Source of the DNA: a virus
Taxonomy: Duplodnaviria; Heunggongvirae; Uroviricota; Caudoviricetes
DNA: 5,626 nucleotides
Virus record (IMG/VR): IMGVR_UViG_2778261201_000002
Reading direction: 5' to 3' (one strand)
The notes under the pieces were generated by a model that saw nothing but the letters and a program-made list of their open reading frames with translations, was not told the origin of the DNA and did no database searches. Within the stretch, counting starts at the first letter, position 1, and every line of letters starts with the position of its first letter. The position numbers were made by a program, and so were the translations under genes. This document shows positions 1-5,626 of this stretch, in pieces.

Positions 1-219
1 TTACATCCACATAATTTGCTGCCCTGATGGCAACGGGTGCGGCCTTACGGCGTGGACTTCTCCCGGCTTCACGATATATCGCTGTACCGACTCATAAGTG
101 ATGAACGTAGCGCTGCAATTCACGTTCTGACACTGGTGATAACGCTCTTTTGTCGTGTCAGTGATATAGCGGCTTGTACGCGCATGTGCGGCATGCTGGC
201 ATAAAGGACAATGAAACAT
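1..219 (-). CDS. ogr: Late transcription activator Ogr (zinc-finger, Ogr/Delta family), 72 aa
   Basis: Translation from the internal ATG at 219 (MFHCPLCQHAAHARTSRYITDTTKERYHQCQNVNCSATF...QQIMWM) matches my recollection of P2 Ogr nearly residue for residue. It has the C-x2-C...C-x4-C zinc-finger spacing. A Shine-Dalgarno-like GGAAGAGGTG lies about 7 nt upstream of this ATG on the - strand. The in-frame upstream extension to 303 has no homology support. Confidence 0.9.
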   Translation of the reverse strand: MFHCPLCQHAAHARTSRYITDTTKERYHQCQNVNCSATFITYESVQRYIVKPGEVHAVRPHPLPSGQQIMWM

Positions 220-253
220 CGCGAGCACCTCTTCCGGTTTTGTTGATGGTGCC

Positions 254-282
254 ATTTTAGTTAATTTATCCTTACAAAACAA
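254..282 (-). promoter_or_regulatory. Candidate sigma70 promoter for ogr (-35 TTGTTT, 17-nt spacer, -10 TAAAAT on the - strand)
   Basis: Read by eye in the 80-bp gap between the D-fragment stop (300-302) and the ogr start (219). Hexamers and spacing are consensus-like. P2 ogr is known to have its own promoter. No experimental or computed support. Confidence 0.35.
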
Positions 283-299
283 ACAGATAAAATAAAACA

Positions 300-911
300 T
301 CACTCATCATCTTCTGTTTCGTACTCCACATCAGAAAGCCTGACCTCAAGCTCCAAGGACGTCGTGAAGCCGCTATTATTCAGAAAATGTGTCACCTTAG
401 TGATTGTCCAGTCCTGCTCGTCTATGACGCGCTTAAAGCCTGACACTTTGACCGGCATTTCCGTGTAAATATCTGCCCGACCAGTAGCCAGGCTGATGGA
501 GAACTCCGCAACGCCCCGTTGCAGTTTGTCCCACTTCGCCTGAGCGGCGCGCATAGCCTGGGCTTTTGTGGCATATACCGTGGTCAGGGCAAAAACGTTG
601 TCAGCTTCACCGGCCATGTATTCACCTTCGCGCGCTTCCGGTACTTTTGGCGCTTTCTTCTGCGTGACCGGTTTCGCTTTCGGGTGCTCCAGTGCGCGCA
701 GGTGTTTTTCTTTCTTTTTGCGTTTCAGTTTTACCTTCTGCTTTTGCGGCTTCGGATCTTTGGTGTGTAACCACTTTGCCGTTACGCCGGTATAGGCTCC
801 ACGGTCAGCAATCGCAAAATGATGACGATCGCCGTCGCTGCGGGTGATGGTGACCTGCGGGATTTTTTTACCGCTGGCCGTCACCCCCTGCCCCGCTTTG
901 AGAAACAGCAG
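300..911 (-). pseudogene. D: Tail protein D, C-terminal fragment of about 200 aa (full-length P2 gpD is about 387 aa)
   Basis: The - strand ORF ending at the stop at 300-302 sits immediately upstream of ogr on the same strand, as in P2. The translation (LLFLKAGQGVTASGKKIPQVTITRSDGDRHHF ... lysine-rich KQKVKLKRKKKEK ... EVRLSDVEYETEDDE) is gpD-like from memory. The first ~35 codons of the ORF track entry (GTG at 1016) look like antisense of the opposite-strand coding sequence, so the 5' boundary near 911 is approximate. Confidence 0.8.
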
Positions 912-1091
912 TTTGCTGAGATGGAAACCGCCTTTTCCGCACTTAAGCAGGATGTGACTGACAGGGCGGATGAAACCAGCCAGGCATTCACCCGCCTGAA
1001 AAACAGCCTCGACCACACCGAAAGTCTGACCCAGCAGCGCCGCAGCAAGGCCACCGGCGGTGGCGGTGACGCCCTGATGACGAACTGCTGA
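906..1091 (+). pseudogene. Probable capsid scaffold (P2 gpO-like) C-terminal fragment
   Basis: The + strand ORF ends 58 bp upstream of the N start, which is the position gene O occupies in P2. The last ~60 residues (QQFAEMETAFSALKQDVTDRADETSQAFTRLKNSLDHTESLTQQRRSKATGGGGDALMTNC) are charged and protein-like, whereas the upstream part of the same ORF is antisense to the D fragment. Identity is inferred from synteny; I do not recall the O sequence. The 5' boundary is approximate. Confidence 0.45.
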
Positions 1092-1149
1092 CCGGCGTCA
1101 GTCAGTCCGGGAAAACCTTCACGATTAACCCTTAATTTCAGGAAAAACT

Positions 1150-2223
1150 ATGCGCCAGGAAACCCGCTTTAAATTTAATGCCTATCTGTCCCGTGTTGCC
1201 GAACTGAACGGCATCGACGCCGGTGATGTGTCGAAAAAATTCACCGTTGAACCGTCGGTCACCCAGACCCTGATGAACACCATGCAGGAGTCCTCTGATT
1301 TTCTGACCCGCATCAACATTGTGCCGGTCAGCGAAATGAAAGGGGAAAAAATTGGTATTGGTGTCACCGGCTCCATCGCCAGCACCACCGACACCGCCGG
1401 TGGCACCGAGCGTCAGCCGAAGGACTTCTCGAAGCTGGCGTCAAACAAGTACGAATGCGACCAGATTAACTTCGATTTTTATATCCGCTACAAAACGCTT
1501 GACCTGTGGGCGCGTTATCAGGATTTCCAGCTCCGTATCCGTAACGCCATTATCAAACGCCAGTCCCTTGATTTAATCATGGCCGGTTTTAACGGCGTGA
1601 AGCGTGCCGAAACCTCTGACCGCAGCAGTAACCCGATGCTGCAGGATGTGGCGGTCGGCTGGCTGCAGAAATACCGCAATGAAGCCCCGGCGCGCGTGAT
1701 GAGCAAGGTTACTGACGAGGAAGGTCACACCACCTCTGAGGTTATCCGCGTGGGTAAGGGCGGTGATTATGCCAGCCTCGATGCACTGGTGATGGATGCG
1801 ACCAACAACCTGATTGAACCGTGGTATCAGGAAGACCCTGACCTTGTGGTGATTGTGGGGCGTCAGCTACTGGCGGACAAGTATTTCCCCATCGTTAACA
1901 AGGAACAGGACAACAGCGAAATGCTGGCCGCTGACGTCATCATCAGCCAGAAACGCATCGGTAACCTGCCGGCGGTACGCGTCCCGTACTTCCCGGCGGA
2001 TGCGATGCTCATCACGAAGCTGGAAAACCTGTCCATCTACTACATGGATGACAGCCATCGCCGCGTGATTGAGGAAAACCCGAAACTCGACCGCGTGGAG
2101 AACTACGAGTCAATGAACATTGATTACGTGGTGGAAGACTACGCCGCCGGTTGTCTGGTGGAAAAAATCAAGGTCGGTGATTTTTCCACACCGGCTAAGG
2201 CGACCGCAGAGCCGGGAGCGTAA
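1150..2223 (+). CDS. N: Major capsid protein, P2 gpN family, 357 aa, apparently intact
   Basis: Full-length ORF whose translation (MRQETRFKFNAYLSRVAELNGIDAGDVSKKF ... DFSTPAKATAEPGA) matches my recollection of P2 gpN in sequence and length. AGGA Shine-Dalgarno about 7 nt upstream of the ATG. Internal ORFs in other frames are treated as spurious. Confidence 0.93.
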   Translation: MRQETRFKFNAYLSRVAELNGIDAGDVSKKFTVEPSVTQTLMNTMQESSDFLTRINIVPVSEMKGEKIGIGVTGSIASTTDTAGGTERQPKDFSKLASNKYECDQINFDFYIRYKTLDLWARYQDFQLRIRNAIIKRQSLDLIMAGFNGVKRAETSDRSSNPMLQDVAVGWLQKYRNEAPARVMSKVTDEEGHTTSEVIRVGKGGDYASLDALVMDATNNLIEPWYQEDPDLVVIVGRQLLADKYFPIVNKEQDNSEMLAADVIISQKRIGNLPAVRVPYFPADAMLITKLENLSIYYMDDSHRRVIEENPKLDRVENYESMNIDYVVEDYAAGCLVEKIKVGDFSTPAKATAEPGA

Positions 2224-2226
2224 CCG

Positions 2227-2724
2227 ATGACGAGTCCCGCACAGCGCCACATGATGCGGGTCTCGGCAGCGATGACCGCGCAGCGGGAAGCCGCCCCGCT
2301 GCGACATGCAACTGTCTATGAGCAGATGCTGGTCAAGCTGGCCGCAGACCAGCGCACACTGAAAGCGATTTATTCAAAAGAGCTGAAGGCCGCGAAAAAA
2401 CGCGAACTGCTGCCGTTCTGGTTGCCGTGGGTGAACGGCGTGCTGGAGCAGGGCAAAGGCGCACAGGATGACATTCTGATGACGGTCATGCTGTGGCGTC
2501 TGGATACCGGCGATATTGCCGGTGCGCTGGAGATTGCCCGTTATGCCCTGAAGTACGGTCTGACCATGCCGGGTAAACACCGCCGCACCCCGCCGTACAT
2601 GTTCACCGAGGAGGTGGCGCTTGCGGCTATGCGCGCTCACGCTGCCGGTGAGTCTGTGGATATATCGTGGATGGCACATGCTGGTTCAGCGAAGAATCCA
2701 ACGATGCGGAAATTGGTCTTGTAG
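2227..2724 (+). pseudogene. M: Terminase small (endonuclease) subunit gpM, truncated: about 145 N-terminal residues then about 20 unrelated residues before a stop
   Basis: Starts 3 nt after the N stop, as in P2. The translation is gpM-like through ...AMRAHAAGESVD (about nt 2661) and then diverges (ISWMAHAGSAKNPTMRKLVL*). I recall full-length P2 gpM as about 247 aa, so this ORF is about 80 aa short. The ORF is open, so a truncated protein could still be made. Confidence 0.8.
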
Positions 2725-3431
2725 CCTGGCCGGTTATCACCGGCATCAATGCCATCATCGCGGCAGCAGGCGCAATGGGGGCAATCTTCACGACGGTTGG
2801 TAGTGCCGTTATGACGGCCATCGGGGCGATTAGCTGGCCGGTTGTGGCCGTGGTGGCTGCAATTGTCGCCGGGGCGTTGCTTATCCGTAAATACTGGGAG
2901 CCTGTCAGCGCATTCTTTGGCGGTGTGGTTGAAGGGCTGAAAGCGGCATTTGCGCCGGTGGGGGAACTGTTCACGCCACTGAAGCCGGTGTTTGACTGGC
3001 TGGGCGAAAAGTTACAGGCCGCGTGGCAGTGGTTTAAAAACCTGATTGCCCCGGTTAAAGCCACACAGGACACCCTGAACCGTTGCCGTGACACGGGCGT
3101 CATGTTCGGGCAGGCACTGGCTGACGCGTTGATGCTGCCGCTTAATGCGTTCAACAAACTGCGCAGCGGTATTGACTGGGTACTGGAAAAACTCGGGGTC
3201 ATCAACAAAGAGTCAGACACACTTGACCAGACCGCCGCCAGAACTCAAGCCGCCACGTATGGCAGCGGTGGTTATATTCCGGCGACCAGCTCTTATGCAG
3301 GCTATCAGGCTTATCAGCCGGTCACGGCACCGGCTGGCCGCTCTTATGTGGACCAGAGTAAAAACGAATATCACATCAGCCTGACGGGTGGTACTGCGCC
3401 GGGGATTCACACGCTCAATACGCGGCCATAA
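2662..3431 (+). pseudogene. Tail tape-measure protein (gpT-like), C-terminal fragment
   Basis: The ORF track entry 2667..3431 opens with GTG, not ATG, and sits where gene L should follow M. The translation has long Ala/Gly/Val/Ile-rich hydrophobic segments (AWPVITGINAIIAAAGAMGAIFTTVGSAVMTAIGAISWPVVAVVAAIVAGALLIRKYWEP), then amphipathic stretches and a Gly/Ser/Tyr-rich tail, which is typical of tape-measure C-termini. Family assignment is by composition and context, not a remembered exact match. Confidence 0.6.
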
Positions 3432-3587
3432 ACGACGCTGAAAAGTGGATGTGAGGAAATAAAACCCGTGCATCTGATTATAATAATCACATGTATCCTG
3501 CCAGCGAGGAACGGCAAGATGCTTACCAATTATCCGGCGCATAGCTGCTGGCTGTTTTTCAACGAGATTGAGCGTCATCACTGTCAT
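3213..3587 (-). CDS. Hypothetical protein; possibly a 5' gene fragment reading through a rearrangement junction (only the first ~52 codons lie outside the antisense of the tape-measure fragment)
   Basis: ATG at 3585-3587 overlaps the TGA stop of the upstream small ORF (ATGA arrangement). A GGAGGG Shine-Dalgarno lies 7 nt upstream on the - strand (plus-strand ccctcc at 3595-3600). The N-terminal translation is MTVMTLNLVEKQPAAMRRIIGKHLAVPRWQDTCDYYNQMHGFYFLTSTFQRR. From about 3431 down to the stop at 3213 the frame runs antisense through GC-rich coding sequence, where long open frames arise by chance. Confidence 0.3.
   Translation of the reverse strand: MTVMTLNLVEKQPAAMRRIIGKHLAVPRWQDTCDYYNQMHGFYFLTSTFQRRLWPRIERVNPRRSTTRQADVIFVFTLVHIRAASRCRDRLISLIACIRAGRRNITTAAIRGGLSSGGGLVKCV
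3471..3493. repeat. 23-bp near-perfect palindrome CATCTGATTAT-A-ATAATCACATG
   Basis: Seen directly: 11-bp arms around a central base with a single mismatched pair. It lies just past the end of the tape-measure fragment, in the zone where GC-rich late-gene sequence gives way to AT-rich sequence. Confidence 0.35.
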
Positions 3588-3754
3588 TTCCATACCCTCC
3601 GGCTTTTCAGAAAGGTCAGAGCCTTCTTTAACGGACTCTGTTTTTTGGTGCGGATAATGATTCCCTTACGCCCCTTACCGTGGGTGATGGTGAAGTCAAT
3701 CGCCTTGGGGCTTTCATTACGCAATAACTGAGCAATACAACGAGGCTCGTTCAT
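3584..3754 (-). CDS. Hypothetical small basic protein, 56 aa (MNEPRCIAQLLRNESPKAIDFTITHGKGRKGIIIRTKKQSPLKKALTFLKSRRVWK)
   Basis: ATG at 3752-3754 is preceded by AAGGTGGAAAGG immediately after the cox stop. The product is Lys/Arg-rich and protein-like, and the ORF is the second gene of the cox-led leftward operon. Longer in-frame starts (TTG 3844, ATG 3841, 3820, 3781) would overlap cox and lack a good Shine-Dalgarno. Function not recognised. Confidence 0.4.
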   Translation of the reverse strand: MNEPRCIAQLLRNESPKAIDFTITHGKGRKGIIIRTKKQSPLKKALTFLKSRRVWK

Positions 3755-3764
3755 CCTTTCCACC

Positions 3765-4121
3765 TTAAGCCGCACGGCCATGTCTTGATTTGCTGTAACT
3801 AATGCGATTTTTCCAGTCATGCCATTCTGTCGGAGCTTCATCAACTAGTTGGGCTGCGTACTTGTCCCACTCACGGCGATTAATCCATAACTCAGCATGA
3901 CCGCCCGGCTTTAATGGGTCCGTCATATAAAAGGCTGGTAACTTGCCTGCTTTCGCCATTTCAGCAACAGCACGAGGCGTCTTACCGATGTAAAGAGCAA
4001 ATCCCTCTTTCGAGAGCAAATCCGACGGTGCGGCTGCAAGTTTGATGTCACATTTTTTACTTTTTGTGAGATCAGATACTTTTTCTCCAACATCGTTATT
4101 CATTTCTGATCCAATACTCAT
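3765..4121 (-). CDS. cox: Cox-like excisionase / early-operon regulator, 118 aa with the ATG at 4121
   Basis: Divergent from and adjacent to the C repressor gene, as in P2. The core (EGFALYIGKTPRAVAEMAKAGKLPAFYMTDPLKPGGHAELWINRREWDKYAAQLVDEAPTEWHDW) aligns by eye with P2 Cox (FAKLIGKSTGAVRRMIDKGKLPVIDMTDP...EYW...W...L...DGW). GAGGA Shine-Dalgarno 7-8 nt upstream of the ATG at 4121. The ORF track start at 4151 is TTG and is not favoured. Confidence 0.75.
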   Translation of the reverse strand: MSIGSEMNNDVGEKVSDLTKSKKCDIKLAAAPSDLLSKEGFALYIGKTPRAVAEMAKAGKLPAFYMTDPLKPGGHAELWINRREWDKYAAQLVDEAPTEWHDWKNRISYSKSRHGRAA

Positions 4122-4225
4122 TTTGATATCCTCAACTTTGGTGCCATTCAACCAGAGCTATTTGAAGCCGCTCTGCGTTGTTCTGGCGTGTCGCATGCAA
4201 CATAAATTACGAGATACGACAATTC
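4122..4225. promoter_or_regulatory. Divergent early/lysogenic promoter-operator region between cox and C (Pe/Pc equivalent)
   Basis: 104-bp gap between divergently oriented cox and C starts. On the - strand there is a consensus -35 TTGACA (plus 4227-4232, overlapping the C start codon), a 17-nt spacer, and a -10-like TAATTT (plus 4204-4209), which could drive cox leftward. A rightward promoter for C is less clear (possible TTGTTC at 4178-4183 and TAAATT at 4203-4208). An imperfect tandem 10-mer tctgcgttgt/tctggcgtgt at 4172-4191 is a candidate operator. All read by eye. Confidence 0.5.
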
Positions 4226-4537
4226 ATGTCAAATACACAAATCACATCTCAAGCAGAGAAACTCGCACTTATTCGGGAGTCAGAAAGAATGACAAGGAAG
4301 CAAGTTGCTGAATTAACTGGAATTAACTACAACACCTATGCTGGATATGAGCAGGGAAAAGTAAAGATGTCTTTTGACGCAGGCATGAAATTTTTCAAGC
4401 CAGAAAGATTTCGCAAGTACCGTGACTGGTTCATGTTTGATGAAACTGATCCCGCTGGCGGACAAATAGCCCCGGCGCTCGCGCACATTGGGCAAGACTC
4501 AACAACCTTGCACCACTCAGACCAAAAGACTGGCTGA
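4226..4537 (+). CDS. C: Immunity repressor, P2 C family, 103 aa
   Basis: From the ATG at 4226 the translation (MSNTQITSQAEKLALIRESERMTRKQVAELTGINYNTYAGYEQGK ... GGQIAPALAHIGQDSTTLHHSDQKTG) resembles my recollection of P2 C (MSNTISEKIVLMRKSE...LADLTG...GQIAPALAHFGQNETT...SGQKTG). It has a helix-turn-helix-like segment and lies just upstream of int on the same strand, as in P2. The ORF track start at 4178 is TTG and adds residues with no homology. Confidence 0.85.
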   Translation: MSNTQITSQAEKLALIRESERMTRKQVAELTGINYNTYAGYEQGKVKMSFDAGMKFFKPERFRKYRDWFMFDETDPAGGQIAPALAHIGQDSTTLHHSDQKTG

Positions 4538-4575
4538 CGATTTATTCAGCATATGTGTGCAGTAAATGTACGAAA

Positions 4576-4594
4576 GAAAATTGCATTAATTTTC
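4576..4594. repeat. AT-rich inverted repeat GAAAATT-gcatt-AATTTTC in the C-int intergenic region
   Basis: Perfect 7-bp arms with a 5-nt loop, seen directly. No downstream T-run, so it is not a convincing intrinsic terminator. It could be a protein-binding site or chance in AT-rich DNA. Confidence 0.3.
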
Positions 4595-4630
4595 AAGTAG
4601 TAGAAGTAAACAGCGTCATCGGAGGGCTTT

Positions 4631-5626
4631 ATGTCTATTAAAAAGCTCGATGATAGTCGTTATGAAGTGGACGTCAGACCGCAGGGTGCAGATGGAAAAC
4701 GTATCAGGCGGAAATTTAAAACTAAAGGTGAAGCTCAAGCATTCGAACGTCATGTACTGGTTAACTACCACAACAAAGAGTGGCTGGAGAAGCCAGCCGA
4801 CCGCCGAACTCTTACAGAGTTGTTAGGCAGATGGTGGATATATCACGGAAAATCACATGAGCGTGGAGATATTGAACGGGGGCGTTTGACGACAATAATC
4901 GCCAAATTTGCAGAAATGGGAGTGTCCAGAGCTGACCAGCTAACAAAGAAAACGATAACTGATTATCGCGTTGTAATGATGAACGATGGTCTAAAACCAG
5001 CCAGCGTAAATCGGCATCTGGCAATAATGAGCGGGATGTTCACCAAGTTAATTGACGCCGGTGAATACCATTCTCACAACCCGTTCCGTGAGGTTAAGCG
5101 ATTACGTGAAGCTGTTACAGAAATGGCTTTTTTGTCCAGTGAAGAGATTACACGGCTGTTATCCATGCTCGATGGTGATGAATTAAATGCGACTCTGGTC
5201 TGCCTTTCTACTGGTGGACGCTGGAGTGAAGTGTCTAATTTAAAAGCTGAACACATCATTAACCAGATGGTTACGTTTATGAAAACTAAAAACGGAAAGC
5301 GCAGGACAATTCCCGTTTCGCAGGACCTGATTAAACGGATCAAGACCAAAAACTCAGGCAGGCTTTTTAATGCCAGTTACTACAAAGTGCGCAACGCTCT
5401 CAGGGAAGTAAAACCCGATTTACCTGACGGACAGGCAGTGCATGTTTTGAGGCATACATTTGCCACACATTTTATAATGAATGGAGGTAACATAATCACA
5501 TTGCAGCGCATCCTGGGTCATTCTAACATTCAGCAAACTATGACCTACGCACACTTTGCACCGGATTTCTTACAAGATGCTGTGACTCTTAACCCGGTGT
5601 CAGGAATGTCCATAATGCGTCCATAA
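4631..5626 (+). CDS. int: Tyrosine recombinase / integrase, P2 Int family, 331 aa, apparently intact
   Basis: Full ORF with a GGAGGG Shine-Dalgarno 4-5 nt upstream of the ATG. The N-terminus (MSIKKLDDSRYEVDVRPQGADGKRIRRKF) resembles P2 Int (MAIKKLDDGRYEVDIRP...GKRIRRKF). Catalytic motifs are present: TGGRWSE, HVLRHTFATHF, and LGHSNIQQTMTYAHF with the nucleophilic Tyr. It ends with TAA at the window edge, so any att site lies outside the window. Confidence 0.93.
   Translation: MSIKKLDDSRYEVDVRPQGADGKRIRRKFKTKGEAQAFERHVLVNYHNKEWLEKPADRRTLTELLGRWWIYHGKSHERGDIERGRLTTIIAKFAEMGVSRADQLTKKTITDYRVVMMNDGLKPASVNRHLAIMSGMFTKLIDAGEYHSHNPFREVKRLREAVTEMAFLSSEEITRLLSMLDGDELNATLVCLSTGGRWSEVSNLKAEHIINQMVTFMKTKNGKRRTIPVSQDLIKRIKTKNSGRLFNASYYKVRNALREVKPDLPDGQAVHVLRHTFATHFIMNGGNIITLQRILGHSNIQQTMTYAHFAPDFLQDAVTLNPVSGMSIMRP

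Follow-up and report, generated by a model that had tools for sequence, protein, structure and literature searches.

A rearranged P2-like prophage remnant at pflA in Escherichia coli, with an inverted interior and five novel joints

The 5,626-nucleotide stretch of DNA analysed here, referred to as the window, is probably the whole gene-bearing part of the grounded remnant of an approximately 31-kb P2-like (Peduovirus) prophage in one lineage of Escherichia coli. Its two ends are parental, while the interior has been turned over and reduced to a few pieces. Taken as a whole, the explanation judged likely is that of a grounded remnant at pflA produced by concerted homology-independent joining. 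As a kind of object the remnant is ordinary, being a decayed prophage, but its scar is unusually intricate.

The Remnant and Its Insertion Site

The remnant sits inside a 146-kb E. coli contig and measures ~5.85 kb from att core to att core (window, 5.6 kb). Its integration point lies at codons 2-5 of pflA, and the 13-bp att core GTCAGTTATTGGT is directly repeated at both prophage ends (positions 7650 and 13491 of L003), with the empty site in K-12 carrying a single copy at the same codons. The outermost prophage genes, ogr on the left and int on the right, are contained within these direct repeats. Both ends have been kept in the correct orientation, with ogr-D' beside pflB and B'-orf78-cox-C-int beside pflA, and the host flanks (99.7-99.8% E. 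coli) are continuous on both sides. Nucleotide identity to P2 is 96-99% across ogr, D, O, N, M, FI, T, A, and B. Missing are P, Q, L, the lysis genes, baseplate, fibres, FII, E, U and most of A and B, together with all of the late-promoter regions. With its homology to P2, its integration bounded by att cores and its loss of essential functions, the element is a defective P2-like prophage. A scan of the window for promoters and terminators gave counts no higher than the shuffle expectation, and a search of the literature returned no pflA integration site for P2-like phages and nothing on the assembly or run accessions.

Gene Content and Order

Segments have been placed by blastn against P2 (NC_001895) and phage S164, and the matches had E-values from 0 to 1e-17, so that none is expected by chance. 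The alignment yields six collinear segments and five junctions. Window positions 1-914 correspond to P2 24254..23340 on the minus strand and hold ogr and codons 184-387 of D. The ogr gene (1..219, minus strand; P2 24254..24036; Pfam Ogr_Delta) is intact, its 72-aa product being identical to P2 Ogr, whereas D is represented by its C-terminal 204 codons (300..914, minus strand; Pfam Phage_GPD), in an open frame that extends to position 1016 through antisense O sequence. Positions 915-2662 match P2 3845..5592 on the plus strand and comprise the C-terminal 58 codons (227-284) of the scaffold gene O with its natural stop (915..1091; P2 3845..4021), the whole of the major capsid gene N (1150..2223; P2 4080..5153; 357 aa), now separated from its late promoter PO, and codons 1-145 of the 247 in M, the terminase small subunit gene (2227..2661; P2 5157..5592; Pfam Phage_term_smal), whose reading frame continues past the junction, out of frame, to position 2724.

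This block is followed by a 51-55-nt scrap of the tail sheath gene FI on the plus strand (2662..2712; codons ~337-354; P2 18657-18711, the 51 nt being ~18661-18711) and by a 693-nt fragment of the tape-measure gene T, also on the plus strand (2713..3405; codons ~555-785 of 815), which belongs to the match of positions 2712-3405 with P2 21512..22205. The fragment is without its last 92 nt and its own stop. A 67-69-nt scrap of the replication gene A lies next to it on the minus strand (3406..3472; codons ~82-105; P2 28346-28278) and supplies the stop at 3429-3431. The last segment (3471-5626), on the strand agreeing with ogr and D, is composed of codons 1-39 of the replication gene B (3473..3587, minus strand; P2 26574..26458), an intact 56-aa orf78 homologue (3584..3754, minus strand; P2 26291-26461 region; a gene call in L003), intact cox (3765..4121, minus strand; 118 aa; Pfam Phage_Cox), an intact C-type immunity repressor with a helix-turn-helix (4226..4537, plus strand; 103 aa), and an intact integrase gene (4631..5626, plus strand; 331 aa; Pfam Phage_integrase). 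Phage_cap_P2 completes the Pfam families on record. The cox gene is of a non-P2 immunity type and 99.8% identical to that of the TK3887 prophage, to which cox, C and int all align without gaps; the repressor (WP_000072552.1) is the same protein in TK3887, GPEC1446, and H6. The FI scrap is matched at 100% identity by the sheath genes of 101 complete genomes of E. coli, and the A scrap is 100% identical to the GPEC1446 prophage.

An initial annotation, made from the letters alone, had assigned ogr and the D fragment to the minus strand and the O, N, M, and T sequences to the plus strand, and the blastn alignments bear this out. It had also placed the end of T within 3431-3590, which was mistaken; the stop at 3429-3431 belongs to the A scrap. 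The FI and A scraps themselves (51 and 67 nt) had been overlooked, and B codons 1-39 and orf78 were found to survive as well.

The Parental Arrangement

Intact prophages of ~31 kb occupy the same pflB-pflA site, in the same orientation, in TK3887 (NZ_AP044767.1) and GPEC1446 (NZ_CM142773.1). They share the att site, int, C, cox, orf78, and ogr with the remnant, and their right end is 99.5-99.8% identical to the window. They differ from it in that their late operons are all co-directional, with O, N, M, FI, and T on the strand of D and ogr. Because these same-site prophages carry O-N-M-FI-T in the direction of D and ogr, an order with which P2 agrees, the O-to-T block of the window is truly inverted relative to ogr/D and to int/C/cox, as had been proposed at the outset. 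The accompanying proposal, that most of the interior had been lost in something more complex than a single deletion, has likewise held, with ~25 kb gone and five joints novel to the window. Among the interior leftovers, O'-N-M', the 51 nt of FI and the 693 nt of T are inverted but collinear, while the 67 nt of A retain the parental orientation.

An exact parent prophage was sought and none was found among the data compared (GPEC1446, M217, and 5,426 complete E. coli genomes). In its head and early parts the remnant is 99.5-100% identical to GPEC1446, and in its tail parts 92.7-97%. The T fragment, the D fragment and ogr reach at most 98% identity to any of the complete genomes, the best match for T plus D-ogr being 98.0%. 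M217 matches the FI scrap exactly and the remaining segments at 97-98%. Similarity thus splits by parental map position and not at the inversion boundaries, which fits a single mosaic parent.

Structure of the Joints

The joints of the scar, J1 to J5, lie at 914|915, 2661|2662, 2712, 3404-3405, and 3471-3472, where the initial annotation had counted three breakpoints. They are packed into 2.6 kb, and two of them switch strand. J1 (913..915), which falls in the interval of 905-915 expected for it, is an inversion-type joint of D codon 184 (minus strand) to O codon 227 (plus strand), with 0-2 bp of microhomology (TT when the nearest O allele is the reference). At J2 (2660..2662), a collinear joint left by a 13-kb deletion, the microhomology to the nearest M allele is 2 bp (TA); a breakpoint near 2660 had been correctly predicted, but M was thought to pass directly into T, whereas it meets the FI scrap. 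This scrap is fused to T in frame at J3 (2712), where a collinear deletion of 2.8 kb has left 1 bp (A) of microhomology. The second inversion-type joint, J4 (3404..3405), connects T (plus strand) to the antisense A scrap (minus strand) over 2 bp (GA) and lies just outside the range of 3431-3590 to which the end of T had been confined. J5 (3471..3472), where a collinear deletion of 1.7 kb has brought the A scrap up to B codon 39, shows 2 bp (CA).

Microhomology at the breakpoints, a possibility raised in the initial annotation, has been detected: J1 to J5 show 2, 2, 1, 2, and 2 bp with the nearest alleles and 0, 1, 1, 2, and 2 bp with S164, the counts at J1 and J2 depending on the reference allele taken as parent. 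With the nearest-allele counts, the chance of at least 1 bp at all five joints is 0.016 and that of this pattern ~0.001; only with these counts does the microhomology exceed chance. The joints are clean, with no filler DNA at any of the five. IS remnants, raised as another possibility, are absent, and searches revealed no IS elements or long repeats at the joints, no long inverted repeats in the window and no att core-like site (up to three mismatches) at any of the five junctions. Homologous recombination between inverted repeats or IS copies has been rejected as the cause of the inversion, given that the parental sequences across J1 and J4 share 2 bp only and that no IS is present in the window. 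Site-specific inversion, whether by the integrase at secondary att sites or by a Hin/Gin-type invertase, has been set aside for lack of a core-like site at the joints; the phage invertase gene and its segment (parental coordinates 11118-12563 of L005) lie at least 1 kb from every breakpoint. Error-prone synthesis at the joint was considered as the source of three clustered mismatches in the FI scrap and discarded, since the same allele occurs in 101 genomes.

Distribution and Age

The remnant is carried by three samples only. Three junction-specific ORFs always occur together, and only on two contigs (GCA_002468195.1 and SRR3726206). The NCBI and Logan assemblies are 100% identical over 13 kb, window included, although both are short-read drafts which may derive from the same or sister isolates. 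No place covering at least 80% of the window was found among 50,697 phage records and 5,426 complete E. coli genomes. All five junctions are absent from these complete genomes and from IMG/VR viral contigs, with J1 and J3 absent also from a one-genome-per-species set and J4 and J5 from JGI metagenomes. No intermediate carrying any junction alone was present in the collections searched, which may reflect sparse sampling of this lineage. Comparison of related strains at the locus, proposed earlier as a means of ordering the events, has demonstrated the inversion but supplied no intermediates by which to order them.

The fragments have acquired neither indels nor internal stops, and most of the differences that separate them from P2 are synonymous, which marks the event as recent. 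Relative to P2, codon differences in the D fragment number 23 synonymous and 2 non-synonymous, and no stop or indel is present in it; the T fragment shows 21 synonymous and 5 non-synonymous differences, with no stops. The N protein is an exact copy of a common allele found in 969 index blocks, and all 10 of the places listed for it, among 24 contigs examined, are ordinary late operons. We infer that only the recency of the event has kept N intact.

Origin of the Rearrangement

All five joints were probably produced without homology, by joining at 1-2 bp of microhomology, and probably in one or a few concerted steps. Candidate mechanisms are serial template switching at a collapsed replication fork, similar to FoSTeS/MMBIR, and breakage followed by microhomology end-joining; on this view the FI and A scraps would represent short inserts, either templated or retained. 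The core of the inversion and deletion model first put forward stands, but the two scraps point to a multi-junction illegitimate rearrangement in its place. One or a few concerted illegitimate events are favoured over five independent mutations because the scraps are tiny and the microhomology is uniform. A single end-state cannot tell one event from several.

MMBIR has been defined by multiple template switches at microhomology which lead to complex rearrangements, including inversions (Hastings, Ira and Lupski 2009, PMC2621351). The window resembles it in that several joints lie in cis, the strand changes between segments, the joints show microhomology (0-2 bp at J1, depending on the allele) and short inserts come from nearby sequence (51 nt of FI and 67 nt of A, from the same prophage). 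It differs in its 1-2 bp of microhomology, which falls below the 2-5 bp typically cited for MMBIR, and in the lack of any duplication or triplication. There has been no gain in copy number, each parental segment being present at most once. Duplications are the usual hallmark of replicative template switching. To our knowledge, E. coli has no classical NHEJ.

Successive deletions and inversions are the textbook route of prophage decay (PMC6379469), and one inversion in the prophage, preceded or followed by four deletions, each fixed independently, would also lead to the present arrangement. Five simple operations would be enough, with J1 or J4 as the surviving joint of the inversion, and in E. 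coli H5/H6 a prophage of this family, inserted at the same site, shows independent decay through one simple deletion in a single step. Such a series is nonetheless unlikely. No junction occurs alone in the 5,426 complete genomes or the other collections, the three junction-specific ORFs are found only together, and the 51- and 67-nt pieces call for two pairs of deletion ends within 70 nt (p ~0.002 under independent uniform breakpoints, a crude null model). In addition, 3.4 kb of dead coding sequence shows no indel, stop or excess of non-synonymous change, so that five fixations in succession would have had little time to occur.

A large deletion from D to B, filled by end-joining capture of loose phage DNA with no true inversion, would also agree with clean joints of 1-2 bp microhomology; the captured fragments could have come from a second, co-resident or superinfecting P2-like phage, and the nearest relatives of the tail pieces do differ from those of the head and early pieces. 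This account is quite improbable, as the three inverted pieces share one orientation and follow the parental order exactly, an outcome given by only 2 of 48 random arrangements, and the A scrap is likewise collinear with B. Moreover, the alleles divide between tail (ogr-D and T) and head/early sequences and not at a boundary between resident and inserted DNA, and the 146-kb contig runs straight through, which suggests that the assembly holds no near-identical second copy. That the scrambled order is a chimeric contig, an artefact of assembly or library with no real DNA behind it, is scarcely credible. The arrangement is carried by short-read drafts only, and the two assemblies possibly come from the same or related read sets; yet two pipelines agree completely over 13 kb, host flanks are continuous at both ends of the remnant, and joints with 1-2 bp overlaps should be impossible as mis-joins in a k-mer graph and would require spanning reads.

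Within the favoured reading of concerted joining, it is conceivable, though doubtful, that all five joints arose in a single catastrophic event confined to the prophage, a bacterial analogue of chromoanasynthesis or chromothripsis, perhaps set off when the prophage was cleaved or underwent abortive replication in situ. If so, a live 31-kb phage would have been turned at once into an immune element of 5.8 kb that still carries ogr and may be able to excise.

Functional and Comparative Aspects

Having lost all four late promoters and every replication, lysis, and tail function, the remnant is predicted to be unable to make phage. Since int, cox, C, ogr and both att cores are intact, it could, judging from its gene content, remain a source of immunity and might be able to excise. 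Defective prophages are common, and they are usually portrayed as decaying slowly, one deletion after another; to this picture the remnant would add a natural case in which an E. coli prophage was inactivated independently of homology and possibly in one step. Annotation pipelines will report plausible chimeric ORFs here, namely D' with an antisense-O leader, M-FI, and FI-T-A. Beyond that, it is one lineage-specific scar and opens no new question.

Two other P2-type remnants invite comparison. The K-12 cryptic prophage PR-X (ogrK and the D fragment yegZ, 629 bp) also consists of an intact ogr and a C-terminal piece of D beside an attachment site. It differs in being a one-ended stub at another chromosomal site, with a 73-codon D fragment whose breakpoint is not that of the window, and in having neither an int end nor an inverted block. 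The H5/H6 remnant (NZ_CP010170.1, NZ_CP010169.1), like the one described here, lies between pflB and pflA and has kept ogr, D, C, and int. It results from a single 27.8-kb deletion which joined U' to cox', with alignments that overlap by ~10 bp at the joint, and it shows neither inversion nor scraps, representing an independent event with other breakpoints.

Segment Structure and Junctions

Comparison of the window with phages P2 (NC_001895) and S164 by blastn has resolved six collinear segments, a to f, meeting at five rearrangement joints (J1 to J5). Segment a (1-914, minus strand; P2 24254-23340) carries ogr and D codons 184-387. It is followed on the plus strand by segment b (915-2662; P2 3845-5592), with O codons 227-284, the whole of N and M codons 1-145, by segment c (2658-2712; P2 18657-18711), a scrap of the sheath gene FI, and by segment d (2712-3405; P2 21512-22205), with T codons ~555-785. 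Segments e (3404-3472; P2 28346-28278), a scrap of replication gene A, and f (3471-5626; P2 26574 downwards, S164 24019-21869), with B codons 1-39, orf78, cox, C and int, lie on the minus strand, and from cox onward f has an immunity type other than that of P2. The FI scrap is genuine, with a 100% match to sheath genes in 101 complete E. coli genomes. The gene calls and strands of the initial annotation agree with these alignments, as does its placement of two breakpoints, near 905-915 and 2660. It had counted three breakpoints where five junctions are found, and had set the third within 3431-3590, outside of which the T fragment ends (3404/3405, 92 nt before the T stop codon). It had also overlooked both scraps (FI and A) and what remains of B and orf78, so that the observation was largely right but incomplete.

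With the nearest available allele taken on each side, 1-2 bp of microhomology occur at every joint: TT at J1 (914/915, D joined to O), TA at J2 (2661/2662, M to FI), A at J3 (2712, FI to T), GA at J4 (3404-3405, T to A) and CA at J5 (3471-3472, A to B). The counts at J1 and J2 vary with the allele chosen as parent, and J1 falls to 0 bp with that of S164. Under random blunt joining, at least 1 bp at all five joints has p = 0.016 and the observed pattern p ~0.001, both resting on allele-dependent counts at J1 and J2. IS remnants, which the initial annotation had considered alongside microhomology, are absent from all five joints, as are long direct or inverted repeats, filler DNA and att-core-like sites. 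The invertase region of the phage itself comes no closer than 1 kb to any of the parental breakpoints.

Inversion and Origin of the Rearrangement

On the P2 map, O, N, M, FI, T, D and ogr are all co-directional. Intact 31-kb relatives occupy pflA in E. coli TK3887 and GPEC1446 and are oriented like the window, with the order pflB> ogr< D< U< T< .. FI< .. M< N< O< P> Q> cargo A< .. B< cox< C> int> pflA>. When compared to TK3887, segments a, e and f are forward, while b, c and d are reversed and in reversed order, and ~25.3 kb of the 30.9-kb parent has been lost. These maps support the model of inversion with deletion put forward initially, and the O-to-T block is indeed inverted.

In simple operations, a minimum of one inversion and four deletions is needed. 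Five independent mutations would be one way of reaching this state, yet two of the retained pieces measure 51 and 67 nt, and two or more pieces of at most 70 nt are improbable with independent uniform breakpoints (p ~0.002). The uniform 1-2 bp of microhomology at each joint and the absence of both intermediates and later decay also argue against independent mutations. The best reading would be one to three concerted, homology-independent events. Random capture of loose DNA fragments is also unlikely, since the inverted pieces share one orientation and have kept the order of the parent exactly, as only 2 of 48 arrangements do. A concerted origin might have proceeded through fork collapse and serial template switching, as in the MMBIR model, in which multiple template switches at microhomology generate complex rearrangements (PMC2621351), or through breakage followed by microhomology end-joining. 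The shortness of the microhomology and the lack of any duplicated segment both count against a strict MMBIR label.

Parentage and Age

Identity to the GPEC1446 prophage at pflA reaches 99.9% in segment b, 100% in e and 99.5% in f, while the best identity of the tail-derived segments a and d among 5,426 complete genomes is 98.0%. As this similarity divides by parental map position (tail pieces on one side, head and early regions on the other) and not by inversion boundaries, it fits one mosaic parent rather than DNA from a second phage. Synonymous to non-synonymous differences from P2 are 21:5 in T, 23:2 in D, 21:2 in N and 8:1 in M, the Ogr protein is identical to that of P2, and the fragments contain no indels or internal stops in comparison with P2 and TK3887. 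The N protein exactly matches an allele present in 969 index blocks, which lay in intact late operons in 10/10 places displayed, of 24 contigs read. The mostly synonymous differences, the lack of indels and stops and the exact, common N allele indicate that the divergence was inherited from live phages and that the scrambling is evolutionarily recent.

Chromosomal Setting and Distribution

The window is found at 100% identity on contig NMNV01000009.1 of GCA_002468195.1 (locus L003, 7775-13400) and in the Logan assembly of run SRR3726206 (locus L004, 431-6056). On the former, a 146-kb contig whose flanks are 99.7-99.8% identical to TK3887, it is bracketed by pflB and pflA. Its bounds are the stop codons of ogr and int, the genes that stand at either end of an integrated P2-type prophage. 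Relative to the empty K-12 site, a 13-bp att core, GTCAGTTATTGGT, is directly repeated 125 nt to the left and 91 nt to the right, so that the element is a complete att-bounded prophage remnant of ~5.85 kb. The prophage family integrates at pflA codons 2-5 (L003 7640-7662, 13432-13503), cutting off the native pflA start ATGTCAGTTATTGGT, which remains next to ogr. A replacement start with 19-20 additional codons (MSNLTNCNTTENTAAAGATK) comes from the phage, and pflA is therefore annotated with 265 rather than 246 aa.

The whole arrangement occurs in no phage record and no complete E. coli genome. None of J1 to J5 has a match among 5,426 complete E. coli genomes, and searches of IMG/VR (all five), a metagenome set (J4 and J5) and species-representative genomes (J1 and J3) found no junction. 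Three open reading frames have been created by the joints: D' with a 34-codon antisense-O leader (300-1016, minus strand, 238 aa), M-FI (2227-2724, plus strand, 165 aa) and FI-T-antisense-A (2667-3431, plus strand, 254 aa), in the last of which FI runs in frame into T. Across the whole gene index each is present only on the same two contigs. Given the restriction of junctions and reading frames to these contigs, the scar is private to one lineage, with no intermediate visible. An assembly artefact is unlikely, as two assemblers give the same structure and k-mer mis-joins cannot yield joints overlapping by 1-2 bp. The chimeric reading frames are reported by gene callers, and two of the three still match Pfam families, so that they could pass for real genes.

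Remaining Functions

The remnant lacks all late-promoter regions, the genes P, Q, L, FII, E and U, those for lysis, baseplate and fibres, and almost the whole of A and B. With these gone, the remnant should make no phage, and N would be left without its promoter. Since C, cox, int, ogr and both att cores are intact, the remnant may yet provide immunity, trans-activate a P2-type phage or satellite that co-infects, and perhaps excise. The terminator following B in P2 is lost in the rearranged window, and early transcription from the cox promoter might in principle cross 3404-914 on the minus strand, running antisense to T', M', N and O' before it enters D' and ogr in sense orientation; a consensus promoter and terminator scan gave background level only.

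Comparison with Other Prophages

Grounded prophages shaped by deletion and inversion have been well described (PMC6379469), and ogrK with yegZ (PR-X) in K-12 is a known P2 stub. The remnant in the window belongs with these, its scar being more intricate. Prophage of the same family at the pflA site has left an independent 3.16-kb remnant in E. coli H6 (NZ_CP010170.1; locus L024, 4001-7158), also present in H5, where a single 27.8-kb deletion joins U' to cox', with two alignments overlapping by ~10 bp at the joint, in contrast to the five joints of the window. This independent case shows that prophage decay at pflA is recurrent.

In the interval separating Q, the portal gene, from replication gene A, at the position of P2 old/tin, the cargo of relatives varies (26715-29309 in L005; ~2700-5800 in L012-L020; 9113-10955 in the GPEC1446 locus, L022), with examples including a SIR2 protein, SIR2_2 with DUF87, an HNH protein, AAA_13 ATPases and a DEAD/DEAH helicase. 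It looks like a variable defence-gene slot of P2-like phages, and it is wholly deleted in the window. In GPEC1446, ISEc12 is inserted in the tail-fibre gene (L022 23012-26782), and M217 carries an IS66-family element and IS150 (locus L010, 15990-18326 and 25667-27036), both prophages being otherwise intact; such insertion is a separate, IS-driven path to prophage inactivation.
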